Assembly (NCBI RefSeq): GCF_000025685.1
Contig: NC_013967.1
Location: 1,980,001 to 2,012,000 of the forward strand
Length of the DNA: 32,000 bases
Source: Haloferax volcanii DS2
Lineage (GTDB): Archaea; Halobacteriota; Halobacteria; Halobacteriales; Haloferacaceae
Direction of reading: 5' to 3'
The position numbers and the translations under genes are program-made. Shown here in pieces: positions 17,832 through 32,000 of the stretch. The notes beneath the pieces were generated by a model. The model made no database searches, was not told where the DNA came from, and saw nothing but the letters and a program-made list of their open reading frames with translations. Every line of letters starts with the position of its first letter. Within the stretch, counting starts at the first letter, position 1.

Positions 17832-18143
17832 GCGTTCGATACACCCTGCGGAGTCGCGGCTGCGCCGAAGCGGTTCGACGGAGCGCCGACGGGCGGCGTG
17901 CGGACGAGCGTCGAGGTGGTCGTCATTACCTATTGGTCCCGTGGGCGAAGTATAGTTCTGTCCCCGCGCGTAAGCGTTGCACCGCGGCGACGACGGCGTT
18001 GGCGGTGGGTTTTCGACTCGGGCGCTGGTCGAATCCTCAGTCGCAGAGCGGTTGTCGGGGCCGTGCTGCATACAGCGCGCGAGTGGGTTGTCGGTTCGAA
18101 ACCGACGGTGTCTCGTGATGCACCAGCGTCGAGTCACGGCCCA

Positions 18144-18476: not shown

Positions 18477-19643
18477 TTACTGCGCGGCGAACAGTCGTTC
18501 GAACACGACCGTCGGGAACCGCGGTTCGAGTCGGCTCGGCGGCCGGCCTTTCCGTTCGACGCGCTCCGCCGTGACCCGGCGGGTGATGCCGTCTTCTGCG
18601 AGTTCGTAGAGGATGCGCTTGACCGTGGTCGGTGAGAGGTCGACCGATTTGGCGATGTGCTGGCTCGTCGCCCGCACCGACTGCTGTTGGTCGGGGCGCA
18701 ACGCGAGGAGTTCGTGGAGCACCTGCCGGCGGTTCTCCGGGAGCGAGAACACGCGGCCGAGCGAGACGCAGGGTTGGGGGACCGCGGCGATTCCGTCGGC
18801 GACGTCGGCGGCCGTGATGCTCCGGTGTTGGTTGCGGACCGCTTCGTCGGCCGCGCCGAACAGCGCCACGAGCGCGTCGTGAGCGTCGCCGTCGGCCCAC
18901 TCCGCGATGTCGCGAGCGAGTCGGTGGTCGAGCGTCCGCCGCGACCCGGCCGCCGACACTCGCGTCATCAGCACGTCGACGAGCACCTGACTCTGGTACG
19001 GTTCGAACTGAATCGCGCCGGCCGTGTAGTCGGTCAGCACCGTCTCGTCGGGCGGCGCGCGCCCGATAGCCAGCCAACTGACTTTGCTCGGAAGCCCGGC
19101 ACAGAGGTCGACGAACGCCTCGCCGTCGAGCGTCCCCGACTCTTCGAGGTGGTCGACGGCGACGACGGCACCCGTCTTCGGGCCGTCGAGCGCGTCCTTG
19201 AGCCGCGACTGGAGCGCCTCGGTCTTGATACCCTGCTTGGGCACGGACTCATCGACGAGCGCGTCGAGCACGGCGTGGTAGAACGCGAACGCGCTCGTCG
19301 TCTCGCGCGCGTCGACGTAGACGAACCGCGGCGCGAACGTCGCCTGCACGCGGGTCGTCGTGTGGATGGCGGCGTTGTTGACGCTCGACACGCGGACGAG
19401 GTGGTCGAACAGCGCCGTCACGACCGCCGACTTCCCCGACCCCTTGGGTCCGTAGACGTAGGCGTTCGGCGGGAGATGGCCGTCGAACACCGGGTCGAGG
19501 TAGTCGAGCAGTCGCTCTAACACCGGTCCGCAGTTCACCGGGTCGTCGGTGTGCGCGACCGGCGAGAGCGAGTCGTAATCGACGAGGAGGCGAGGCTCAC
19601 CGTCCCGGCGTTGCCGACGTTGGATCCTCGCTTCGATGTCCAT
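18477..19643 (-). CDS. orc1: Orc1/Cdc6-family AAA+ protein (replication-initiator paralog)
   Basis: Walker A GPKGSGKS, Walker B VVAVDHLEE and a C-terminal winged-helix region (TTVKRILYELAEDGI). The true start is MDIEARIQ at 19643, and a GATATAC box (19671..19677) lies about 28-34 nt upstream. Confidence 0.85.
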   Translation of the reverse strand: MDIEARIQRRQRRDGEPRLLVDYDSLSPVAHTDDPVNCGPVLERLLDYLDPVFDGHLPPNAYVYGPKGSGKSAVVTALFDHLVRVSSVNNAAIHTTTRVQATFAPRFVYVDARETTSAFAFYHAVLDALVDESVPKQGIKTEALQSRLKDALDGPKTGAVVAVDHLEESGTLDGEAFVDLCAGLPSKVSWLAIGRAPPDETVLTDYTAGAIQFEPYQSQVLVDVLMTRVSAAGSRRTLDHRLARDIAEWADGDAHDALVALFGAADEAVRNQHRSITAADVADGIAAVPQPCVSLGRVFSLPENRRQVLHELLALRPDQQQSVRATSQHIAKSVDLSPTTVKRILYELAEDGITRRVTAERVERKGRPPSRLEPRFPTVVFERLFAAQ

Positions 19644-19724
19644 GTCGTAGTGGTAGTTCCGAAATGGGAGGTATATCAGTTCTGACTGCTTACGGCTGTG
19701 GTACGTCTGTGGTCGCCCGGTCGT

Positions 19725-19736
19725 CGAACGTGTTCG
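19725..19736. promoter_or_regulatory. IR box A: CGAACGTGTTCG
   Basis: Lies in the orc1 / DUF2249 divergent spacer. It ends 40 nt before ATG 19777, and its centre is 87.5 nt from the orc1 ATG at 19643. Confidence 0.65.
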
Positions 19737-19776
19737 GGGCAACCGACTCGGCGGTCCCCAACGAGGTACGACGCGT

Positions 19777-20010
19777 ATGGCAGACACCACCCTCGACGTG
19801 CGCGACCTCCCACCGGCGGAGCGCCATCCGAAGATTCACGCCGCGTTCGACGACCTCGACGCCGGCGAGTCGCTGACGATTCTCAACGACCACGACCCGA
19901 AGCCGCTGTTCTACGAAATGCAGGCCGAAGTCGACGCGTTCGACGCCGACAACTACACGGTCGAACAACGCGCTTCCGACGAGTTCGCGGCGACGTTCCC
20001 GAAGCGGTAG
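19777..20010 (+). CDS. DUF2249-domain protein (77 aa)
   Basis: LDVRDLPPAERHPKIHAAFDDLDAGESLTILNDHDPKPLFYEM matches my memory of the DUF2249 pattern and is paralogous to 25712..25972. IR box A ends 40 nt upstream. Confidence 0.75.
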   Translation: MADTTLDVRDLPPAERHPKIHAAFDDLDAGESLTILNDHDPKPLFYEMQAEVDAFDADNYTVEQRASDEFAATFPKR

Positions 20011-20092: not shown

Positions 20093-20104
20093 CGAATATG
20101 TTCG
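20093..20104. promoter_or_regulatory. IR box I: CGAATATGTTCG
   Basis: Lies between the DUF2249 and NnrS-like genes and ends 38 nt before ATG 20143. Confidence 0.6.
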
Positions 20105-20142: not shown

Positions 20143-21483
20143 ATGAGCGTCATTCCCGCCGATGTCGACACGACCCGACAGCCCCCGATGACGATTCCGC
20201 TCCGGCACTTCGTCGTCGCGCTCGGCTTCCTCGCGGCCGCGGTGGGCCTCCGGGTCGCTTTCGCCGTCGGCGTCGCTCCCGGTGCCGCCCGACTCGCCCA
20301 CGTCCACCTCCTGCTCGCGGGGTGGGTGTGCGTCACCATCATGGGCGCGATGACGCAGTTCGTCCCGGTCTGGTCCGGCGTCGAACTCTACTCCCGACGA
20401 CTCGCGACCACGCAGTTGTGGGTCGTCAGCGTCGGTCTCGCCGGCCTCGCGGGATGCTTCCTCCTCGGGGCGTTCGCGTGGCTCCCCGTCTTCGGTGCCG
20501 TCGCGCTCCTCGGCTTCTGGACGTTCGCCTACAACGTCGCGCGCACGCTCTCCCGACTCGACGGCTCCGACGTGACCGAGCGCCACTTCGGCCTCGCACT
20601 CGGATTTCTCGCGGTCGTCACCGCGCTCGGCGTCCTGCTTGCGGTCGACTTCACGCGCCCGCTTTTCGCCGGTATCGGCGTGGGCCACGCGAGCGTCCGC
20701 GCGGCCCACGTCACGCTCGCCGTCTTCGGCGTCGTCGTGACGACCGTCGTCGGCGCGCTCTACCAACTCGCGACGATGTTCACCCAGACAAAGCTCCGCG
20801 GCGTCGACGTGTGGCTCCGCCGATTCGAGGAGGTCGGCTACCCCGTCGGTGTCGTCGCCCTCGCCGGTGGCCGACTCGTCTCCGACCCGACGCTCGCGCG
20901 GGTCGGCGGCGCGCTCGTCGCCCTCTCGCTTTTCGGTGTCGCCGCGATTCTCGCCCGTCGCCTCGTCGAGTCGGCGGTCGATTGGACGCCCATGCTCACC
21001 CGGTACGCCGTCGCGGCCGTCGCGCTCGCCGGGTGGGCCGTCCTGACGCTCCCCGCGTGGCTCGCGGACCCGCTGGCGGGGGACCGACTGTTCGGCGCGC
21101 CGGGAACCGGGTCGCTGTTCCGGCTCGGCTTCGTCGGCTTCGTCGTGCTCGGGACGCTCTACCACGTCGTCCCCTTCATCGTCTGGATCCACCGATACAG
21201 CGACCGCCTCGGCCTCGAACCCGTGCCGATGCTCGACGACCTCTACGACGCCCGCCTCGCCCGCCTCGATTTCGGTCTCGTCGTCTCGGGCGTCGCCGCC
21301 GTCGTCGCACGCGACCTCGCCGGTCTCTCGACGGGCGTCGAGACGGCGGGCTGGACGCTCGTGCTCGCCGGTGTGGCGGCGTTCGCTGCGAACCTCCTGC
21401 GAGTTATCTGGCTCCACAGCCCGCAATCGCTGGTCGGCGGCGCGGCCGCGTCGGCTGGCGGTGCGGACGACGGCGCTGACTGA
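20143..21483 (+). CDS. Polytopic His-rich membrane protein, NnrS-like (putative haem/copper NO-stress protein)
   Basis: About 12 TM segments. AHVHLLLAGWVCVTIMGAMTQFVPVWSG fits the NnrS-type pattern H-x-H-x4-G-x7-G-x3-(T/Q)-x2-P-x-W-(S/T)-G as I recall it. A second half-repeat is AHVTLAVFGVVVTTVVGALYQ. The start at 20143 (MSVIPADV) is chosen because IR box I (20093..20104) covers the earlier ATG 20098 and ends 38 nt before 20143. The family assignment is from memory, not from a search. Confidence 0.75.
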   Translation: MSVIPADVDTTRQPPMTIPLRHFVVALGFLAAAVGLRVAFAVGVAPGAARLAHVHLLLAGWVCVTIMGAMTQFVPVWSGVELYSRRLATTQLWVVSVGLAGLAGCFLLGAFAWLPVFGAVALLGFWTFAYNVARTLSRLDGSDVTERHFGLALGFLAVVTALGVLLAVDFTRPLFAGIGVGHASVRAAHVTLAVFGVVVTTVVGALYQLATMFTQTKLRGVDVWLRRFEEVGYPVGVVALAGGRLVSDPTLARVGGALVALSLFGVAAILARRLVESAVDWTPMLTRYAVAAVALAGWAVLTLPAWLADPLAGDRLFGAPGTGSLFRLGFVGFVVLGTLYHVVPFIVWIHRYSDRLGLEPVPMLDDLYDARLARLDFGLVVSGVAAVVARDLAGLSTGVETAGWTLVLAGVAAFAANLLRVIWLHSPQSLVGGAAASAGGADDGAD

Positions 21484-21922: not shown

Positions 21923-21934
21923 CGAACACGTTCG
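21923..21934. promoter_or_regulatory. IR box B: CGAACACGTTCG (CCGAACACGTTCGG with flanks)
   Basis: Ends 41 nt before the cupin ATG at 21976. It is followed after 6 nt by GGCTTACC (21941..21948). Confidence 0.65.
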
Positions 21935-21975: not shown

Positions 21976-22281
21976 ATGCCAGAACACGCCGTGCTCGACG
22001 ACCTCCCGCCGCAGATGCACGCGCCCGTCTTCGAGACCGACCGTCCGAAAACCGTTAGACTCCGCCTCGAAGCCGGCGACGAGGTGCCGGCGCACTCCCA
22101 CCCCGGGTTCGACATCGTCTTCCACGTCGTCACCGGCCGGATGGAACTCGCGCTCGACGGCGAGACGCACGAGGTTGCCGCGGGAGAGCTGCTGCGGTTC
22201 GGCGGCGACCGCGACATCTCGCCGCGCGCGCCGGTCGACAGTACCGCAGTGCTCGTGTTCGCCCCGGCTGTCGACGACTGA
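21976..22281 (+). CDS. Cupin-domain protein (101 aa)
   Basis: Cupin motif 1-like DEVPAHSHPGFDIVFHVVTG and motif 2-like GELLRFGGD. The start at 21976 (MPEHAVL) is 41 nt after IR box B; the ORF-track start at 21814 would read through the promoter. Confidence 0.75.
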   Translation: MPEHAVLDDLPPQMHAPVFETDRPKTVRLRLEAGDEVPAHSHPGFDIVFHVVTGRMELALDGETHEVAAGELLRFGGDRDISPRAPVDSTAVLVFAPAVDD

Positions 22282-22316: not shown

Positions 22317-22931
22317 TTACTCCGGCTCGCCCGACAGCCGCTTCAGTGCCGCCTCGAACTCCTCGGACAGCGAAACCGAATCCGGCTCGTCGCTGTCGCG
22401 CTCACCCGTCGACGAGCCGGTATCGGGGACCGAGTCGTCCGTCTCCGCCTGCGCGTCAGCCGGGTCCATCGCGTCGAGCTCCGCGTTGATGGCGTCTGCC
22501 TGCTGGTGCATCGGCGCGACGCGGACTCGGACGCGGTCGTAGTCGTGACGGTCGTCGAGGCCGTTCCACGCCCGAAACGCGCCGACGGTGAGCGTCTTCG
22601 ACTGCGGGCAAAACGGCGTCGTCGGCGTGAACTCCGCGACAAGCACCGACGGGTCGTCTCGGTCCTCCGCGTAGCGGAACCCCGCGTCCGGGTGGCGGCG
22701 GTCGAGGTTCAGCCGCGCGAGGTTGTAGCCGAACGTCACGTCGTAGACGCCCCGCGCTTCGAACAGGTCGCGGGCGACCCGGTGGACGGCGACGTGGTCG
22801 TCGCCGTCGAGGACGCGGTGGCCGTCGAGGAAGGCGTCCGGGTCGGGCAGGTGTTCGGGGACGAACTGGTCGATATCGTCGAAGCGGTCGGCCCGCGACC
22901 CGCCGCCGAACAGGGACGGAATGTCTGGCAT
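22317..22931 (-). CDS. Hypothetical protein with DUF59-like (MIP18/SufT-type) T-x-T-x-P-x-C-P motif and acidic C-terminal tail
   Basis: The true start is MPDIPSLF at 22931. SVLVAEFTPTTPFCPQSKTL...VRVRVAP resembles the DUF59 Fe-S/metallocentre-assembly fold signature (weak, from memory). Near-consensus IR box C ends 38 nt upstream. Confidence 0.65.
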   Translation of the reverse strand: MPDIPSLFGGGSRADRFDDIDQFVPEHLPDPDAFLDGHRVLDGDDHVAVHRVARDLFEARGVYDVTFGYNLARLNLDRRHPDAGFRYAEDRDDPSVLVAEFTPTTPFCPQSKTLTVGAFRAWNGLDDRHDYDRVRVRVAPMHQQADAINAELDAMDPADAQAETDDSVPDTGSSTGERDSDEPDSVSLSEEFEAALKRLSGEPE

Positions 22932-22969: not shown

Positions 22970-22981
22970 CGAACACGTTCA
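22970..22981. promoter_or_regulatory. IR box C: CGAACACGTTCA (one mismatch)
   Basis: Ends 38 nt upstream of the minus-strand ATG at 22931 (DUF59-like protein). Confidence 0.55.
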
Positions 22982-24169: not shown

Positions 24170-25249
24170 CTACTGCGGGTCAGGGTCGGGGTCGAATATC
24201 TCGGGGTCTTCCGCCCCCTCGGCGCGGACGACCGCCATACAGCCCTTGCGGACGACGCGGGACAGCGAGTGGTCGACGAGCTTGAAGTCGCCGGGGACGG
24301 GCGAACTCATCGTCGCGATGGTCGTGCTCCCCGGCGGCACCTGTCGCGTCTGGATGTGGGTCTGCGGCTCGGTCGTCAGCGACCCCTCGGGGTAGAGCGT
24401 CTCCCAGACGCTTCCGATGGGGTGGAAGCTACTGGAGAGGTTCGGCCCCCCGTCGACGAAGTACACCCGGACCGTCTCGTCGAGGCCGACCGTCGCGGCC
24501 GGCCCCCGGCCGTTGGGCGTCCACGCGTACTTCTCGCCGTTCATGAGGACGTACGTCGGCTCCTCGTTCCGCATGGCCTCGTAGTCGAAGGCGTGTTGGC
24601 CCTCCTCGCCGGCGTCCTTGTCGGTGTAGAGTTCGTGCTGGCCGAGGTATATCTCGTGGTCGACCTCGGGCATCCCCTCCGGCGGTTCGACGAGGATGAG
24701 CCCGAACATCCCGGCGCTGATGTGCATGTCCATGTTCGGCACGGCGCAGTGGTAGATGTACGCGCCGGGGTAGGTCGCCTTGAACCGCAGGTGTGCCGTC
24801 TCGCCGGGGTTCGTCATCGTCGCTTCCGCGCCGCCGCCGGGGCCGGCGACCGCGTGGAAGTCGACGTTGTGCGGCATGGTGTTCTCCTCGGGGTTCTCGA
24901 ACGTCACGTTCACCGTGTCGCCCTGCCGGACGCGGACGAGCGGGCCGGGAACCTGCCCGTTGTACGTCGTGTAGGTGAACGTCACGCCGTCTTCTACCTC
25001 GGCGGTCACTTCCTCCGGCCGGAGCGTCACGTCGACCTCGGCGGACTCGCTCCGGTCGATGGGACCGGGGATGTCCGTCGGGTCGGCCGCGACTTGGTCC
25101 ACCAGGTTCGTCGAACCCTGTTGTGTCGGTTCCTCCGTCTCGTCGAGCGACTGCGCGGCGGTCGGCGATTTCGTCGCACAGCCGGCGAGCGATGCGACGC
25201 CGCCGAGTCCGAGCCACTGGAGCGTCCGCCGCCGAGTCGTGGATAGCAT
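24170..25249 (-). CDS. nirK: Copper-containing nitrite reductase, Tat-exported lipoprotein
   Basis: Tat motif TRRRTL and lipobox LAGC. Type 1/type 2 Cu ligand motifs HNVDFHAV and YIYHCAVPNMDMHISAGMFG. An SD-like GGAGGGAG lies 6 nt upstream, and a TTTATA box is at 25295..25290. Confidence 0.95.
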   Translation of the reverse strand: MLSTTRRRTLQWLGLGGVASLAGCATKSPTAAQSLDETEEPTQQGSTNLVDQVAADPTDIPGPIDRSESAEVDVTLRPEEVTAEVEDGVTFTYTTYNGQVPGPLVRVRQGDTVNVTFENPEENTMPHNVDFHAVAGPGGGAEATMTNPGETAHLRFKATYPGAYIYHCAVPNMDMHISAGMFGLILVEPPEGMPEVDHEIYLGQHELYTDKDAGEEGQHAFDYEAMRNEEPTYVLMNGEKYAWTPNGRGPAATVGLDETVRVYFVDGGPNLSSSFHPIGSVWETLYPEGSLTTEPQTHIQTRQVPPGSTTIATMSSPVPGDFKLVDHSLSRVVRKGCMAVVRAEGAEDPEIFDPDPDPQ

Positions 25250-25328: not shown

Positions 25329-25340
25329 CGAACATCTTCG
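25329..25340. promoter_or_regulatory. IR box D: CGAACATCTTCG, upstream of the nirK TATA box
   Basis: The centre is 85.5 nt from the nirK ATG (25249) and about 42 nt upstream of the TTTATA box (25295..25290). Confidence 0.6.
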
Positions 25341-25418: not shown

Positions 25419-25571
25419 TCAGTCGCCGCCGACGAAGCGGTCGCGGCGGTACCGACACTGCTCGCAGAAGAACTGCGCGAGCCCCGCCGGCTGCGTGCCG
25501 GTGAAGGCCATCTCGGAGCCGCAGTCGGGACACCATTCGGAGTGGGTGGTATTCGTGTGGTCTGAACTCAT
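25419..25571 (-). CDS. Zinc-ribbon micro-protein (50 aa)
   Basis: MSSDHTNTTHSEWCPDCGSEMAFTGTQPAGLAQFFCEQCRYRRDRFVGGD has a CxxC...CxxC pair. It has its own AT-rich box (TTAATGTAATAA on the minus strand, 25596..25607) 25-36 nt upstream of the ATG, which is leaderless-type geometry. Confidence 0.5.
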   Translation of the reverse strand: MSSDHTNTTHSEWCPDCGSEMAFTGTQPAGLAQFFCEQCRYRRDRFVGGD

Positions 25572-25711: not shown

Positions 25712-25972
25712 TCAGGGCTCCCAAATCGCGGTGACGACGCCCTCGTCGCGCTCGGCGGAACAGTAGGCGAATCCCCGGTCGTCGAGCTTCGGGTAGAGGA
25801 ACTTCGGCTCGCGGTCGTTAAGCTGGACGAATACGGTTTCGCCGTCGAGGTCGGTGAGGCGGTTCATCGTCTCCGTGAGCGGTTCCGGCGGCGGCAGCTC
25901 CCGCACGTCGAGGAAATCCACCGCTCGCTCGGTCGGTGCGTCGAGTCCGTCGAGGTACGCCTCGCGGTCCAT
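25712..25972 (-). CDS. DUF2249-domain protein (86 aa), second paralog
   Basis: LDVRELPPPEPLTETMNRLTDLDGETVFVQLNDREPKFLYPKL is paralogous to 19777..20010. The true start is MDREAYL at 25972, and IR box E ends 38 nt upstream. Confidence 0.75.
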   Translation of the reverse strand: MDREAYLDGLDAPTERAVDFLDVRELPPPEPLTETMNRLTDLDGETVFVQLNDREPKFLYPKLDDRGFAYCSAERDEGVVTAIWEP

Positions 25973-26010
25973 ATGCGTGTCGTGGGGGCGACAGCGCAGG
26001 AAGCTCACCC

Positions 26011-26022
26011 CGAACGTGTTCG
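26011..26022. promoter_or_regulatory. IR box E: CGAACGTGTTCG (reads CGAACACGTTCG toward the DUF2249 gene)
   Basis: Ends 38 nt upstream of the minus-strand ATG at 25972. Confidence 0.65.
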
Positions 26023-26046
26023 ATTCGGTTTCCCCGGCCAGTCGGC

Positions 26047-26058
26047 CGAACACGTTCG
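26047..26058. promoter_or_regulatory. IR box F: CGAACACGTTCG
   Basis: Ends 45 nt before the radical SAM ATG at 26104 and is followed after 6 nt by GGCTCACC (26065..26072). Its centre is 36 bp from the centre of box E. Confidence 0.65.
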
Positions 26059-26103
26059 GGGCGTGGCTCACCTTCCGCGACGCCGAACCGCACGACAAGA
26101 GCC

Positions 26104-27294
26104 ATGTCTCGACCGCCACACGTCGACACCGACGCCGACGCCGAAGCCAACGCCGACGCGGGAAGTGACGCCGGCGCGCCGCCGACTGCGACCGCCCCGC
26201 CGGACCCGTCGAGCATCGACACCTCGCGGCGGCCGTTCGTCCTCATCTGGGAGGTCACGCAGGCGTGCGACCTCGCGTGCGACCACTGTCGGGCGGACGC
26301 GACGCCCGCGCGACACCCCGACGAACTGACCACCGCCGAAGGAAAGCGCCTGCTCGACCAGGCCCGCGAGTTCGGCCCCGGGCAGCTCGTCGTCCTCTCC
26401 GGCGGCGACCCGCTCGCCCGCTCGGACCTCGTAGACCTCGTCGAGTACGGGACCGACATGGGCCTCAGGATGACTCTCACGCCGAGCGGGACGTCGTCGC
26501 TGACGTCCGAGACGGTTGCTGCCCTCCTCGACGCGGGCGTCAAGCGCATGGCGCTCAGCCTCGACGGCGCGACCGCGGCGTCGCACGACGCCTTCCGAGG
26601 AGAAGACGGGAGCTTCGACCAGACCGTCGCGGCCGCCCGCGCCGCCCGCGAGGCCGGTCTCCCGCTCCAGATAAACACGACCGTCTGCGCCCAGACGGTC
26701 GACGAACTCCCCGCGCTCTGCGACCTCGTGGCCGACCTCGGCGCAGTCCTCTGGTCCGTGTTCTTCCTCGTCCCCGTCGGGCGCGGGCGCGTCCTCGACC
26801 CGATTTCCCCCGAGCGCGCCGAGCGCGTCATGGAGTGGCTGACCGAGGTGAGCGAGGACGCGCCCTTCGGCGTCAAGACGACCGAAGCGCCCCACTACCG
26901 GCGGGTCGCTATCCAGCGCCGGCGGGACGCGAGCGACGCGCCCCCGACCGACGGCATCGGCCGCCGGCTCGGCATCACCGCGGGCGACGGCTTCGCCTTC
27001 GTCAGCCACACCGGCGACCTGTTCCCGTCGGGGTTCCTCCCGGCGACCGCCGGCAACGTCCGCGACGGCGGACTCGTCGAACGATACCGCGAGAGCGACC
27101 TCTTCCGGTCGCTCCGGGACCGCGACGCCCTCGGCGGGAAGTGCGGCGCGTGCGAGTTCCGCCACGTCTGCGGCGGCAGTCGCTCGCGGGCCTACGCCCA
27201 CACCGGCGACCCGCTGGCCAGCGACCCGCTCTGCGGGTACGTGCCCGCCGACTACGACGGCCCGATACCCGGGACTCGGTCGGCGGGCGACTGA
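26104..27294 (+). CDS. Radical SAM / SPASM-domain enzyme (NirJ/AhbD-like or peptide-maturase-like; subfamily unresolved)
   Basis: CxxxCxxC cluster motif in VLIWEVTQACDLACDHCRADA and a C-terminal SPASM-type Cys cluster (GGKCGACEFRHVCGGSRSRAY...DPLCGY). The true start is MSRPPHV at 26104, and IR box F ends 45 nt upstream. The N-terminal 40 aa are an acidic low-complexity stretch. Confidence 0.9.
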   Translation: MSRPPHVDTDADAEANADAGSDAGAPPTATAPPDPSSIDTSRRPFVLIWEVTQACDLACDHCRADATPARHPDELTTAEGKRLLDQAREFGPGQLVVLSGGDPLARSDLVDLVEYGTDMGLRMTLTPSGTSSLTSETVAALLDAGVKRMALSLDGATAASHDAFRGEDGSFDQTVAAARAAREAGLPLQINTTVCAQTVDELPALCDLVADLGAVLWSVFFLVPVGRGRVLDPISPERAERVMEWLTEVSEDAPFGVKTTEAPHYRRVAIQRRRDASDAPPTDGIGRRLGITAGDGFAFVSHTGDLFPSGFLPATAGNVRDGGLVERYRESDLFRSLRDRDALGGKCGACEFRHVCGGSRSRAYAHTGDPLASDPLCGYVPADYDGPIPGTRSAGD

Positions 27295-27328: not shown

Positions 27329-27340
27329 CGAACACGTTCG
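27329..27340. promoter_or_regulatory. IR box G: CGAACACGTTCG
   Basis: Ends 39 nt before the halocyanin ATG at 27380. Confidence 0.65.
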
Positions 27341-27379: not shown

Positions 27380-27946
27380 ATGACGCGCGACACCAACCAC
27401 ACGAGACGGCGTTTTACGGCACTGACTGCGACGGCGGCGCTGTCGACGGCGCTCGCCGGCTGTTCCGGCTCCGGCGGCGACGCCGCGAACGCGGCCGCGG
27501 CGGACGGGGACGACGCGACGACCGCCGAATCGACCGCGGAGCCGACGACCGAGTCCGGCGGCACGACCGGCGGCGACGACGGTTCCGGCGACGGGAGCGC
27601 CCCGCAGTTCGACGGCTGGTTCGACAACGTGGACAACTACGACGGCGTCGCGGACGCGACCGGGCAGTCGACAGTCACGGTGACGGTGGGGTCACAGGCC
27701 AACGGCGGGGCGTTCGGGTTCGGCCCGGCCGCCGTACGGGTCGATTCCGGCACCACGGTCGTCTGGGAGTGGAACGGCAAGGGCGGGTCGCACAACGTCG
27801 CCGCCGCCGACGGCACCTTCGAATCGGAGTTGGCGGGCAGTAGCGGTCACACGTTCGAACACACCTTCGAGGCGGCCGGGACGTACACTTACGCCTGTAC
27901 GCCCCACGAGACGGTCGGGATGAAGGGCGCAATCGTCGTCGAGTAG
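27380..27946 (+). CDS. Halocyanin (type 1 blue copper protein), Tat-exported lipoprotein
   Basis: Tat motif TRRRF and lipobox LAGC, an acidic Thr/Gly linker, and cupredoxin ligands GGSHNV ... YACTPHETVGMKG. IR box G ends 39 nt upstream. Confidence 0.9.
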   Translation: MTRDTNHTRRRFTALTATAALSTALAGCSGSGGDAANAAAADGDDATTAESTAEPTTESGGTTGGDDGSGDGSAPQFDGWFDNVDNYDGVADATGQSTVTVTVGSQANGGAFGFGPAAVRVDSGTTVVWEWNGKGGSHNVAAADGTFESELAGSSGHTFEHTFEAAGTYTYACTPHETVGMKGAIVVE

Positions 27947-28540: not shown

Positions 28541-28718
28541 GTCGGCAGTCCGATGTCGGCGAAAAACAGAGACGGTGAATCAGTCGCCGGTTGCGCTGTT
28601 GTGCATCCGTTATCTGATGAGGTGGTGTGACACGGACAGAGGCTGTATGCAGTAATTCGCTATCCTTCGTTTCGCACCGAAGTGGGTGAATAGACCGAGG
28701 AAATCACGTGCGAGTTGG

Positions 28719-29390
28719 TCATCCGAGCGAACTGGGGGTCAGCGTGTCACCGAGAACGTATAGTGGTATTCCAAGCAGAACCCCGATAACGCCAAATGCA
28801 ATGAATACGAGTGCTGCTGGTCCTCGCACTCGCTTTGTCATTGGAATTGAGTTGACTAACGCAAGCACATATACCGAGAACACGAGTAGATAAGAGAGAA
28901 TAATCGGCTTACGACTACTCTGCCGAGAAACATAACCCACAGGGAACATTGCTGCGAGTGGAAGGGACAAGTATAGCGAAATCTCGATACTATTGGAACC
29001 GAGGAGACGAAGAACTGCAGAGAATTGAAGTCCATTCGCAGCAAGGAGAGCGACCACAACTCCCGCCAGCGATGCGAGCCAACATCCGATGGTAGAGCAG
29101 TATGGGTATCGCTGATGTACAAACGAAAATAATCCAAGAGTAAAGTAGACACCACCAACTGAGAACAGCCACGGGGTTGAATCTCTAATGAGAGGGACCA
29201 AAGAAGGATACAGTGGATGTCCGAGGAAGTAGACACTAATTACAAACACAGCGACACTACTTCTGTTATTGTCGATACTTCGGTTTTGTAGCAAATTCCT
29301 CAGCAAACGATGTATTGTATAGAAAGACCCAGTAACGATAGCAGCCGGAAATACGACGAGCCAGATTAGATTAGTAAGAACCACATTCAT
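28719..29390 (-). CDS. Hypothetical polytopic (about 6-7 TM) membrane protein in a low-GC island
   Basis: A 223-aa ORF with an ATG start and consistently hydrophobic segments. Local GC is well below the window average. No motif was recognised. Confidence 0.55.
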   Translation of the reverse strand: MNVVLTNLIWLVVFPAAIVTGSFYTIHRLLRNLLQNRSIDNNRSSVAVFVISVYFLGHPLYPSLVPLIRDSTPWLFSVGGVYFTLGLFSFVHQRYPYCSTIGCWLASLAGVVVALLAANGLQFSAVLRLLGSNSIEISLYLSLPLAAMFPVGYVSRQSSRKPIILSYLLVFSVYVLALVNSIPMTKRVRGPAALVFIAFGVIGVLLGIPLYVLGDTLTPSSLG

Positions 29391-29547
29391 GAGTTAGATT
29401 ACTAACAAATGTTTGATAAGTTTTGTGGGGCTGTCTATCGCTTCGTATCTCGTCAGATGAGAGCTGGCCAGAGACCGACTCGCGCGCTCTATGCAGCACG
29501 ACTCCGACAAATATCAGAAAATACGAGGTTCGACAGAGCCTCGCCCG

Positions 29548-31830
29548 TTAGTCGTCGCCCAAGATACCCTCAGCGACCGCCATATCGTCGACGCTCGGGT
29601 CGTCGGCGGACTGCCTGAGGACGAACCGCTTTCTGACGAGGTCAGCCGCGTAGATGACCGTCCCGAGGATGATGAGGGAGTCGCCGGGGAGCCGCGCCCA
29701 GAACAGCGTCTGAATCAGCGGCTGGTCGTAGAAGGCGACGCTCCGAGCGGCGGCGTAGCTCCCGGTGAACGCCGTCTCCAGTTGGAGGAAGCCGACCGGG
29801 AGGACGGAGACGAACACCATCAACACGAGGCCGACGTTCCAACACCAGAAGGCGGCGCGCAGCCACGAGCCGTCCCAGCGCTCGGGGTCGATGGAGAGCT
29901 GGAGCATGTAGGTGACCATGCCGAGCGCGAGGAAGCCGAACGCGCCGAACATCGCGGCGTGGGCGTGGCCGACCGTCAGGTACGTCCCGTGTTCGTAGTA
30001 GTTGATGAGCGGGAGGTTGATGAAGAAGCCGAGCACGCCCGCGCCGACGAAGTTCCAGACGCCGCTGGCGACGATGAACATGAACGGCAGGCGGTACGGG
30101 AACGACTCGCCCGACATCGCGCGGTACTGCCCGAGCGCCTCGTAGAGGATGAACACCAGCGGGATGAGTTCGAGCGTCGAGAAGACGCTCCCGATGGGCA
30201 CCCACATGTCGGGCATGCCGACCCACCAGTAGTGGTGCGAGACGCCGATGATGCCCGTCCCCATGACGAGCAGCGCCTGGAGCATGACGGCCTTCTCTGC
30301 GCTCCGGCGGGACAGCAGGTTCATCGACACCAGCGTCAGGCCGACGATGGCGACGATGAAGAACTCGAACGCCCCCTCGACCCACATGTGGACGACCCAC
30401 CAGCGCCAGAACTCCGTGACGGCGATGTTCGTCTCGGGGGTAAAGAGGAAACCCGCGGTGAACAGGAGGGCGATGGAGCCGCCGGCGTACAGAATCATGT
30501 GCGCCAGTCCGTACGGCGGTTCCTTGTCGAGAAGCGGTTTCAGGCCGCGGACGGCCAGTCCCGCCCAGATGAGGAAGCCGGCGAGGATGCCGAACTGCCA
30601 GAGCTTCCCGACTTCGAGGTATTCGAGCCCCTCGTTGCCGAGAATCCACCACAGCGAGCCGTCGATGTAGCCGTTCGCGCCCAGCCAGATGCCCGACAGG
30701 CCGCCGACCACGACGACGACGATAGCGCCGAGGAGGACGTTGATGTACCTCGACTGCTTCGGCGGTTCGTAGCCGGTCAGAAGCGGCGGGAGGAACAGCC
30801 CCGCGCCGAGCCACGTCGCGGCTATCCAGAGGATACCGAGGTCGATGTGCCACGTCTTGGCGATGGCGAACGGGAGCAGTTGCAGGATGGGCACGCCGAA
30901 TAGCGACTCGATGCCGAAGAAGCCGGCGCGCTCGATGTAGAAGTGCGCGAGCAGACCGCCCAACAGCACCTGCGCCAAGAACAACCCGGCGGCGACCGGG
31001 ATGAACCGGAGCGCCGCCCGCTGGCTCGGGAAGACGCTCACGTCGCCCGGTTCGGGCACCGTGATGTCCTCGGCCGACGGCTCGGGGAGTTCGACCGACT
31101 TGTACAGCCAGATGCCGAGGCCCGCCCCCGCGACGAGAAGCACCATGGCGACGACGCTCCACGTCATCGAGGCGGCGGTGGCGTCGTTCCCCGCGCCGGG
31201 CTGGTACGGCCAGTCGTTCGTGTACGAGTGGGTGCCGTCGGGGCGGTCGGTGTGAGAGAACCACGCCGTCCACATGGCGAAGTCCGCGAACGCCCGCGCC
31301 TCCTCCTCGGAGTCGATCATGTTTACGGGCACGCCGCGCTCGTGGTCGCCCTCGTGGTAGCGCTCGACGTACTCCTGTCGAACCTGCTCGTGGGCGTAGA
31401 CCTCGGCCGCAGTGTACCGAATCACGCCGCCCTCGTAGCTGTCGTCGAGGTCGGATTTCACCACGTCGGCGACGGCCGCTTGGTCTGCGGAGTCGAGTTC
31501 GTCGTAGGGTTCACCGTAGCGCTCTTGGGCGTAGTAGTTCCGCATGAACCCGACTTTCAAATCCAGCGCGTCGGCGGTGTAGTCCGCGCCGTAGTACGCG
31601 CCGTTGCCCAGTATCGACCCGTGGTTCATCAGGCCGTCTCTCTGGAACACCGTCTTGCCCTCTCGAATCACGTCGCCGTTGGCGACGACGTCACCGTCGG
31701 GTCCGACCACCTCGTCGGGGATGGGTGGGGCCTCCTGATAGGCGAACCACGCGCCCGCACCCATCACGACGAGGTTGAAGACGAACACGACGACGATTGC
31801 CTTCGCGATGGTCTTGCGTTGTATCTCCAT
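29548..31830 (-). CDS. norZ: Nitric oxide reductase, long single-subunit quinol-dependent type (qNOR)
   Basis: 760 aa with an N-terminal TM segment and periplasmic extension fused to a haem-copper-oxidase core. Conserved His motifs are VVHMWVEGAFEF, SHHYWWVG and GHAHAAMFGAFG. Confidence 0.95.
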   Translation of the reverse strand: MEIQRKTIAKAIVVVFVFNLVVMGAGAWFAYQEAPPIPDEVVGPDGDVVANGDVIREGKTVFQRDGLMNHGSILGNGAYYGADYTADALDLKVGFMRNYYAQERYGEPYDELDSADQAAVADVVKSDLDDSYEGGVIRYTAAEVYAHEQVRQEYVERYHEGDHERGVPVNMIDSEEEARAFADFAMWTAWFSHTDRPDGTHSYTNDWPYQPGAGNDATAASMTWSVVAMVLLVAGAGLGIWLYKSVELPEPSAEDITVPEPGDVSVFPSQRAALRFIPVAAGLFLAQVLLGGLLAHFYIERAGFFGIESLFGVPILQLLPFAIAKTWHIDLGILWIAATWLGAGLFLPPLLTGYEPPKQSRYINVLLGAIVVVVVGGLSGIWLGANGYIDGSLWWILGNEGLEYLEVGKLWQFGILAGFLIWAGLAVRGLKPLLDKEPPYGLAHMILYAGGSIALLFTAGFLFTPETNIAVTEFWRWWVVHMWVEGAFEFFIVAIVGLTLVSMNLLSRRSAEKAVMLQALLVMGTGIIGVSHHYWWVGMPDMWVPIGSVFSTLELIPLVFILYEALGQYRAMSGESFPYRLPFMFIVASGVWNFVGAGVLGFFINLPLINYYEHGTYLTVGHAHAAMFGAFGFLALGMVTYMLQLSIDPERWDGSWLRAAFWCWNVGLVLMVFVSVLPVGFLQLETAFTGSYAAARSVAFYDQPLIQTLFWARLPGDSLIILGTVIYAADLVRKRFVLRQSADDPSVDDMAVAEGILGDD

Positions 31831-31896: not shown

Positions 31897-31908
31897 CGAA
31901 CATGTTCG
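31897..31908. promoter_or_regulatory. IR box H: CGAACATGTTCG (perfect 12-bp palindrome)
   Basis: Lies in the norZ / unknown-gene divergent spacer. Its centre is 72.5 nt from the norZ ATG (31830) and 45.5 nt from ATG 31948. Confidence 0.65.
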
Positions 31909-31947: not shown

Positions 31948-32000
31948 ATGACGACCGATTCGCGACCCGCGGCCCACGACCACGACACGCCCGACACGGC
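31948..32000 (+). CDS. 5' end of an unidentified gene (partial), divergent from norZ
   Basis: ATG at 31948 (MTTDSRPAAHDHDTPDT...). IR box H ends 39 nt upstream, the same phasing as the other box-associated starts. The fragment is too short to assign a function. Confidence 0.35.
   Translation, partial: MTTDSRPAAHDHDTPDT

Follow-up and report, generated by a model that had tools for sequence, protein, structure and literature searches.

Why a gene for a NirJ-like radical S-adenosylmethionine (radical SAM) enzyme should stand beside that of a copper nitrite reductase is the question raised by a stretch of 32,000 nucleotides of the Haloferax volcanii DS2 genome (RefSeq assembly GCF_000025685.1, contig NC_013967.1, positions 1,980,001 to 2,012,000 of the forward strand), which is here called the window and whose numbering is used throughout. 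The first-pass annotation of the window, made from its letters and open reading frames, had pointed out that NirK needs no haem d1, and had proposed for the product of the gene at 26104–27294 (forward strand) an oxygen-independent, AhbD-type haem b synthase supplying the nitric oxide (NO) reductase qNOR, a maturase acting on a small neighbouring product, or a cofactor-repair role under NO stress. With a probability that we put at roughly 87%, the gene is ahbD (HVO_2144), encoding the oxygen-independent radical SAM haem b synthase that carries out the last step of haem b synthesis. The open reading frame, the matches to the TIGR04053 and TIGR04545 profiles and the gene order converge on this assignment, and the enzyme belongs to the subgroup that carries only one of the two auxiliary cluster sites, AuxII. 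The AhbD identity and role of HVO_2144 were already published in 2017: the finding is real, but it is not new.

The locus tag follows from gene order. NCBIfam NF041913 ('HVO_2142 family') and Pfam PF28086 take their name from the 50-residue product of a neighbouring gene, and counting along the window makes nirK HVO_2141, the zinc-ribbon gene HVO_2142, the gene of a DUF2249 protein HVO_2143, the radical SAM gene HVO_2144 and the halocyanin gene HVO_2145, with norB, which codes for qNOR, being HVO_2147 as published. Since the order nirK, HVO_2142, HVO_2143, radical SAM gene, halocyanin, and further on norB, fits the numbering of Kosugi et al. 2017 (PMC5746218), the gene is HVO_2144. In that work HVO_2144 was named ahbD, its nirK/norB neighbourhood was already noted, and a CGAA-X4-TTCG palindrome was described upstream of ahbD and of denitrification genes, so that gene, protein, neighbours and palindrome are the same and nothing differs between the published system and the one described here. 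The ahbD deletion mutant grew normally in air and very slowly by denitrification or by dimethyl sulfoxide (DMSO) respiration, its DMSO-respiring growth was fully restored by 5 µM protohaem, and the mirror mutant lacking the peroxide-dependent ChdC (PitA; pitA/chdC) was defective only aerobically (PMC5746218). The evidence on HVO_2144 in that study thus consists of growth phenotypes and haem rescue, with no enzymology. The curated H. volcanii annotation also lists HVO_2144 as ahbD (Enzyme Commission number EC 1.3.98.6), 42% identical to the assayed Methanosarcina barkeri AhbD, and reports chdC in nearly all haloarchaea and ahbD as well in two-thirds of them (PMC8305020). Because DMSO respiration of the mutant also fails, the role of ahbD is not specific to qNOR or to NO stress. 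Thus, of the roles initially considered, that of an AhbD-type synthase is borne out by the published deletion and its rescue with protohaem, the restriction to qNOR has to be dropped, and no evidence was found for cofactor repair under NO stress.

The open reading frame extends from ATG 26104 to the stop codon ending at 27294 and encodes 396 residues. The sole alternative in-frame start, GTG 25936, would make the gene cross the divergent promoter and both copies of the palindrome that it contains. A later start, which would remove the acidic N-terminus, was considered and rejected: no in-frame ATG, GTG or TTG is present from 26104 to the radical SAM motif, and such a start is also contradicted by the M-S/T-R-P start kept in Haloferax and Halobellus and by the spacing of the palindrome, which fits 26104. 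The acidic, low-complexity N-terminus, initially regarded as unusual for the family, does exist, and corresponds to an insert at approximately residues 6–33 (26119–26202, forward strand) flanked by the conserved M-S/T-R-P start. In the alignment the insert is restricted to the H. volcanii clade, differs by insertions or deletions of 4 and 6 residues among close Haloferax relatives, and is missing from Hfx. larsenii and Hfx. mediterranei, from Halobellus and from other genera. The structure model predicts the N-terminus to be disordered, with a predicted local distance difference test (pLDDT) value below 50 for residues 1–30 and 34–42.

The protein contains IWEVTQACDLACDHC, that is, the CX3CX2C motif at C55/C59/C62 (26266–26289, forward strand) expected to bind the radical SAM [4Fe-4S] cluster, which confirms the NirJ/AhbD-like start noted initially and does not vary in any aligned homologue, Thermus and Bacillus included. 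In the radical SAM superfamily this motif is carried by a partial triose-phosphate isomerase (TIM) barrel; the predicted core of HVO_2144 is a beta/alpha barrel matching radical SAM structures, and the Pfam profile Radical_SAM (PF04055) is matched with 76.7 bits (cut-off of 29.5). The best NCBIfam model is TIGR04053 ('radical SAM/SPASM'; E=4e-150), which aligns residues 39–381 with profile positions 2–366 of 366 and scores 500.1 bits, a whole-protein score above the curated cut-off of 395 that makes the protein a member of this family. The next profiles are those of AhbD (TIGR04545, 338.6 bits), NirJ2 (236.6 bits), NirJ (TIGR04051, 157.8 bits versus a cut-off of 515), AhbC (153.9 bits), PqqE (139.5 versus 381) and MftC (133.1 versus 265), with other maturases of peptides that are made on ribosomes and modified after translation (RiPPs) or of cofactors scoring lower still. 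A search of the PDB gave no AhbD structure, and the best match by sequence was PqqE (6c8v, E=2.7e-25). Foldseek, run on the predicted fold, returned SPASM/twitch radical SAM enzymes only (PqqE, E=3.6e-16; BlsE; SuiB; SkfB; CteB). As these matches are generic SPASM/twitch enzymes, structure cannot tell AhbD from the maturases.

Nine Cys residues are present in the protein, and its C-terminal domain contains only four, C347, C350, C356 and C377, arranged as CX2CX5CX20C (27142–27234, forward strand), in place of the seven to eight C-terminal Cys that form AuxI and AuxII in a full SPASM domain. Thus, the C-terminal SPASM Cys cluster reported initially is present as far as AuxII is concerned, but the AuxI Cys are missing. 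The three radical SAM and the four AuxII Cys are invariant across the haloarchaeal, Thermus and Bacillus homologues, as is S359, while S301 is nearly so; these two Ser residues stand where full-SPASM AhbDs carry AuxI Cys. According to Fix et al. 2023 (PMC10452713), all AhbDs have CX3CX2C and CX2CX5CX20-38C motifs, the eight-Cys SPASM motif is confined to the AhbDs of methanogens and sulfate reducers, and non-methanogen archaeal AhbDs, including a Halorubrum sequence, have Glu/Ser/Ser in place of three AuxI Cys. HVO_2144 carries both motifs of AhbD (C55-X3-C59-X2-C62 and C347-X2-C350-X5-C356-X20-C377), and its loss of AuxI Cys with Ser instead is the published signature of the non-methanogen archaeal AhbDs. 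With AhbD of M. barkeri (Mbar_A1458) and of Desulfovibrio vulgaris (TIGR04545, EC 1.3.98.6), HVO_2144 shares the two motifs and the same inferred reaction; it differs from them in that the four AuxI Cys of the full SPASM domain are missing, and in that H. volcanii also has ChdC, which makes HVO_2144 an anaerobic alternative rather than the sole route.

By analogy with the assayed AhbDs (PMC6013774, PMC10452713), the chemistry of this AuxII-only enzyme may be inferred. The CX3CX2C-bound [4Fe-4S] cluster would cleave S-adenosylmethionine to yield the 5'-deoxyadenosyl radical, which would successively take a hydrogen from the two propionates, on rings A and B, of Fe-coproporphyrin III; each propionate would then lose CO2 and one electron, leaving a vinyl group, so that protohaem would be the product and the spare electron would exit through the single C-terminal auxiliary cluster, AuxII. 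Under aerobic conditions the same step is carried out by the peroxide-dependent ChdC (PitA), which does not function without oxygen. Anaerobic respiratory enzymes in general, among them qNOR, nitrate reductase and those of DMSO respiration, would obtain their haem b from AhbD, whereas NirK would not.

How such a gene came to be associated with denitrification genes is indicated by the regulatory sites. That it is embedded in, and shares a promoter box with, a NirK/qNOR island was claimed by the first-pass annotation and is fully supported: the neighbours are as described, and the box CGAANNNNTTCG occurs 11 times in the window compared with an expectation of 1.51 and a maximum of 4 in 100 shuffled sequences. 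Eight of the 11 sites are in island promoters; two, at 26011 and 26047, fall within the 131 bp that separate the divergent DUF2249 and radical SAM genes. The box is centred 44.5–51.5 nucleotides upstream of the start codon in seven genes, being at −51.5 for the radical SAM gene, and at −72.5 for qNOR and −85.5 for nirK. The site assigned to ahbD (26047–26058, CGAACACGTTCG, to which no strand is attributed) is the same palindrome as that described in PMC5746218, and H. volcanii has been reported to require the site for the transcription of nirK (PMC5746218, citing Hattori 2016). In Haloferax mediterranei, reporter assays on the nar, nir, nor and nos promoters have included point mutants of the box. 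The ahbD orthologue of the same species (E6P09_00765) has a box in common with the divergent DUF2249 gene and is induced under denitrifying conditions with a log2 fold change of 2.78, the values for nirK, nor, halocyanin and the orthologue of HVO_2143 (DUF2249) being 8.06, 5.73, 4.16 and 8.65, respectively. Thus, ahbD sits in the nitrite/NO-reductase island because of a common anaerobic switch: since ChdC needs peroxide or oxygen and haem b is still required for anaerobic respiration, ahbD is connected to the anaerobic activator site that nirK and norB also use. In proteobacterial denitrifiers hemN is under Anr/Dnr control, and, like ahbD, it codes for a radical SAM enzyme that acts late in haem synthesis independently of oxygen and is co-regulated with denitrification genes; it differs in belonging to another family, in acting at another step (coproporphyrinogen III to protoporphyrinogen IX) and in its regulator.

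The distribution of the gene points in the same direction. A scan of one genome per species gave 573 confirmed relatives, of which the best 80 loci, all haloarchaeal and 64–96% identical, were kept for the counts of genes within 10 kb that are given here and below. NirK is found near the radical SAM gene in 18 of the 80 loci, qNOR in 17, halocyanin in 17, a DUF2249 protein of the HVO_2143 type in 29, and the zinc-ribbon gene in only four. By taking into account only the 52 loci with full 10-kb flanks, NirK or qNOR is nearby in 18, accessory genes only in 12 and none of these genes in 22. An exact box is present up to approximately 260 nucleotides upstream of the radical SAM gene in 43 of the 80 loci (about 5 expected by chance), and 25 of these 43 have no nir or nor gene nearby. 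The gene is also present in loci of Halodesulfurarchaeum and Halanaeroarchaeum, which are not known to denitrify. From the many loci without nir or nor genes, and from the box being kept in such loci, it follows that the ahbD-type gene has a general anaerobic function, and is parked in a denitrification island in Haloferax, Halobellus and some other genera. Orthology to AhbD together with a place in non-denitrifiers had been regarded initially as speaking against a role tied to the island. Such a situation was largely found, with 34 of the 52 loci lacking NirK and qNOR and the gene being present in non-denitrifying anaerobes.

Several observations weigh against the assignment as AhbD and are best considered together. 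Although the match to the AhbD equivalog TIGR04545 is full length (residues 47–381 versus profile positions 2–339 of 339), the score of 338.6 bits does not reach the cut-off of 500 bits, and the NCBI label for HVO_2144 is 'TIGR04053 family' only, not AhbD. No AuxII-only AhbD had been assayed in vitro as of 2023, and in M. barkeri AhbD perturbation of AuxI halts the enzyme after the first decarboxylation, so that an enzyme without AuxI needs explaining (PMC10452713). As for the genetic evidence, denitrifying growth of the ahbD mutant was only partly restored by protohaem, a rescue that required added DMSO, and neither in trans complementation nor a measurement of haem or coprohaem in the mutant was reported (PMC5746218). 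Haem-biosynthesis genes are not recurrent neighbours in the 80 haloarchaeal loci, where those that recur are genes of the anaerobic/NO island (the membrane protein described below, helix-turn-helix (HTH) regulators, a 204-residue protein, CGCGG, DUF2249, qNOR, NirK, halocyanin and cupin). Finally, the gene of a protein of the CGCGG family (TIGR03995; HVO_2148) lies directly upstream of the radical SAM gene, on the same strand and with abutting frames, in 15 of the 80 species, which belong to several families, and within 10 kb in 30 of the 80.

The latter arrangement is at the basis of the alternative that survives best, namely, that the radical SAM enzyme wholly or additionally modifies the CGCGG protein, with the haem-rescuable phenotype being indirect, for instance through a requirement for the modified protein in the handling of haem without oxygen. 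In the window only the 5' end of the CGCGG gene is present (31948–32000, forward strand, translation MTTDSRPAAHDHDTPDT, truncated at the window's end). The box at 31897–31908 (centre −45.5), which also serves the divergent norB, drives the CGCGG gene, whose H. mediterranei orthologue shows induction on denitrification (log2 fold change of 4.30). Full-length orthologues score 137.6–138.2 bits against the TIGR03995 cut-off of 70 (137.6 bits for that of locus L007, 15957–16316), and are conserved over their whole length, with two invariant Cys, five invariant His and a CGCGGH motif. The NCBI name of TIGR03995 ('putative rSAM-modified RiPP protein') implies a relationship with a radical SAM enzyme, presumably because the CGCGG gene abuts that of the enzyme; a literature search on 'TIGR04053' and 'CGCGG family' gave no papers. 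Other evidence is not easily reconciled with a modified substrate. The radical SAM family is broad, reaching Thermus and Bacillus, while the CGCGG family has 896 members, all named ones being from Halobacteria, and no CGCGG gene was found on those plasmids of Thermus and Bacillus on which the radical SAM gene is located. CGCGG genes are also found away from any radical SAM gene, beside sufB, ric, a haem-copper oxidase gene or DUF2249. The model of the CGCGG protein is a compact beta-alpha-beta-alpha-beta-beta domain (pLDDT of 88.7, predicted template modelling score of 0.81), unlike a leader-core peptide; a fold match to fragments of Rossmann-type methyltransferases was not accepted, the best E-value being 7.8e-3. 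By also taking into account that the enzyme lacks AuxI and is far below the cut-offs of the RiPP maturases, and that protohaem rescues the mutant (PMC5746218), modification of the CGCGG protein as the explanation of the locus is improbable.

The CGCGG protein is rather read as a small accessory protein of the anaerobic/NO regulon, putatively binding a metal or a cofactor, that may act as an AhbD partner; its compact model with invariant His and Cys makes the RiPP label appear doubtful. In at least 15 of the 80 species the abutting frames would couple the translation of its gene to that of ahbD. A broader proposal, which we consider unlikely though clearly less so than modification as the main activity, is that the haloarchaeal AuxII-only AhbD works with or on the CGCGG protein of approximately 100 residues, which might serve as the electron acceptor in place of the lost AuxI, as a coprohaem or haem chaperone to qNOR, or as a true substrate. 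In the latter case TIGR04053 would be a bifunctional or misassigned enzyme.

A second alternative is suggested by the homologues outside the Archaea. TIGR04053 members were found by tblastn on plasmids, namely, on Thermus thermophilus megaplasmids (53–54% identity) and in the Bacillus cereus group (46–48%). The Thermus homologue (pTHTHE1601, L005:8989-10116) is flanked by nirS and by nirM, which codes for a cytochrome c, and lies next to norCBH. In the Thermus literature the gene is named nirJ and its product given a role in the maturation of haem d1 or NirS, for which no direct test was found in that literature. By extension, and with the NirJ2 profile second only to AhbD among the tetrapyrrole models, HVO_2144 could be a NirJ-like enzyme that makes or tailors another tetrapyrrole, of the haem d1 type or a modified haem for the nitrite and NO reductases, and not haem b. 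However, no nirS, nirF, nirN or nirE was found in the window, where the nitrite reductase is the copper enzyme NirK; HVO_2144 scores lower with the NirJ models than with AhbD, and far short of their cut-offs; the gene is found in many loci without nir or nor; and in the mutant DMSO respiration fails too and plain protohaem rescues growth (PMC5746218). NirJ and AhbC/NirJ1 (TIGR04546/TIGR04054) are related radical SAM/SPASM enzymes that modify tetrapyrroles and have a comparable motif near the N-terminus, but HVO_2144 scores 146.7–157.8 bits against cut-offs of 515–650, the substrate of these enzymes is didecarboxysirohaem, and NirS is not present here. We, therefore, consider the synthesis of a tetrapyrrole other than haem b very improbable for HVO_2144. 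The comparison may actually be reversed: the Thermus 'NirJ' (nirSJM operon) shares with HVO_2144 membership in TIGR04053, the AuxII-only Cys pattern and a nir-nor cluster under anaerobic/NO regulators, and differs in adjoining a cd1-type NirS and in lacking haloarchaeal-type CGCGG and DUF2249 genes as neighbours, so that, judging from these sequence features, it may be an anaerobic haem b synthase instead.

The B. cereus plasmid homologue (L006:6989-8107) lies beside nrdDG, adhE and the gene of an FprA flavoprotein, and a gene for a YwiC-like membrane protein is found near the radical SAM gene in both Thermus and Bacillus. The membrane protein encoded at 20143–21483 of the window was considered as a haloarchaeal counterpart of the latter and rejected, with no similarity being detected by BLASTP. 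Thermus uses ChdC aerobically. The same has been shown in Haloferax (PMC5746218, PMC8305020) and is stated for Bacillaceae in a 2024 paper, according to which the oxygen-independent coprohaem decarboxylase of these bacteria is "yet unknown"; AhbD has also been reviewed as occurring in facultative bacteria that otherwise use ChdC. The pattern of an AuxII-only, AhbD-like enzyme in anaerobic gene sets fits AhbD at the family level, as an indication from context rather than proof.

The remaining alternative, a peptide maturase acting on the adjacent DUF2249 protein, on the HVO_2142 zinc-ribbon protein or on halocyanin, draws on the divergent or adjacent, co-boxed genes and on the frequency of DUF2249 near the radical SAM gene, and is the least probable of all, because the three candidates are folded-domain families rather than precursor peptides, zinc-ribbon and halocyanin genes are infrequent neighbours, DUF2249 genes are spread in nar, nos and nor clusters without this radical SAM gene, the sequence affinity of the enzyme is for tetrapyrrole enzymes (AhbD and NirJ2 far above PqqE and MftC, with no AuxI) and the mutant is rescued by haem (PMC5746218). 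PqqE, by sequence and fold, and SuiB, SkfB and CteB, by fold, are the closest solved structures, but these SPASM maturases, with MftC, have two auxiliary clusters or a RiPP recognition element and act on peptides, whereas HVO_2144 has AuxII only and no recognition element.

With HVO_2144 taken as AhbD, the rest of the island can be described around it. On the reverse strand upstream of ahbD are the divergent gene of the DUF2249 protein HVO_2143 (25712–25972, 86 residues, 54.6 bits with Pfam DUF2249), that of the 50-residue zinc-finger (zinc-ribbon) protein of the HVO_2142 family (25419–25571, 106.1 bits with NF041913 versus a cut-off of 90; PF28086), and nirK (HVO_2141, 24170–25249), assigned from gene call, Pfam and box (25329–25340). 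The automated gene calls gave a longer DUF2249 protein of 119 residues (25712–26071, reverse strand), whose start at 26071 would overlap both boxes. The position of the box CGAACGTGTTCG at 26011–26022 (no strand attributed), which is an exact box centred 44.5 nucleotides upstream of ATG 25972, and the spacing in the other promoters favour the latter start. More generally, in this GC-rich DNA the translated box appears as 'PNVFG/PNTFG' in spurious N-terminal extensions of several open reading frames. Downstream of ahbD are, on the forward strand, the halocyanin gene (HVO_2145, 27380–27946; Pfam match; box at 27329–27340, centre −45.5) and, on the reverse strand, norB (HVO_2147, 29548–31830, 760 residues; gene call and box). 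Between the halocyanin gene, with that of a 165-residue membrane protein, and norB there is a stretch of low G+C content (approximately 28550–29550; 0.55–0.63 versus about 0.70 around it) that holds an open reading frame for a 223-residue membrane protein (28719–29390, reverse strand) with no family match; the corresponding place in H. mediterranei is occupied by an IS1595 transposase, suggesting that insertions recur at this site.

At the left side of the island are a second DUF2249 gene (19777–20010, forward strand; gene call; box at 19725–19736, centre −46.5), the gene of a conserved polytopic membrane protein of about 446 residues (20143–21483, forward strand; box at 20093–20104, centre −44.5), that of a cupin protein (21976–22281, forward strand; Pfam match; box at 21923–21934, centre −47.5) and that of a conserved 204-residue protein (22317–22931, reverse strand; a box with one mismatch at 22970–22981, centre −44.5). 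A gene for an Orc1/Cdc6-like protein (18477–19790, reverse strand; a weak match of 76.9 bits, below the cut-off) marks the left edge of the boxed island, beside the first DUF2249 gene. Outside the island, an exact CGAAGCGGTTCG site at 17866–17877, 40.5 nucleotides upstream of ATG 17831, the likely start of the class 1 fructose-bisphosphatase gene on the reverse strand, could be due to chance or mark an additional regulon member, while the exact boxes at 2874 and 11174 are inside coding regions of ABC transporters and are probably due to chance.

For neither the membrane protein nor the 204-residue protein was a match found with Pfam and NCBIfam at E-values up to 5. They are found within 10 kb of the radical SAM gene in 30 and 26 of the 80 loci, respectively, and recur near the ahbD-type gene also where nirK and nor are missing (Haloplanus, Halodesulfurarchaeum). 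Together with the DUF2249 and CGCGG genes they form a conserved, uncharacterized anaerobic module. Genes for HTH regulators of approximately 215–240 residues, of the bacterio-opsin-activator/DmsR/NarO type, are found within 6 kb of the radical SAM gene in 24 of the 80 loci, in some at less than 100 nucleotides (loci L019, L029, L045, L047, L060 and L072, among others), and these flanking regulators are candidates for the reader of the CGAA-N4-TTCG box; NarO itself has been reported to be missing from H. mediterranei.

The presence of a NirJ-like radical SAM enzyme beside a copper nitrite reductase is, therefore, a puzzle that was solved in 2017, the answer being the oxygen-independent synthesis of haem b for all anaerobic respiration. 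However, three public labels disagree for what is one family: ahbD in H. volcanii, TIGR04053 with a presumed RiPP target at NCBI, and NirJ for haem d1 maturation in Thermus. Enzymology of an AuxII-only member would reconcile these labels, and would also bear on the coprohaem decarboxylase of Bacillaceae.

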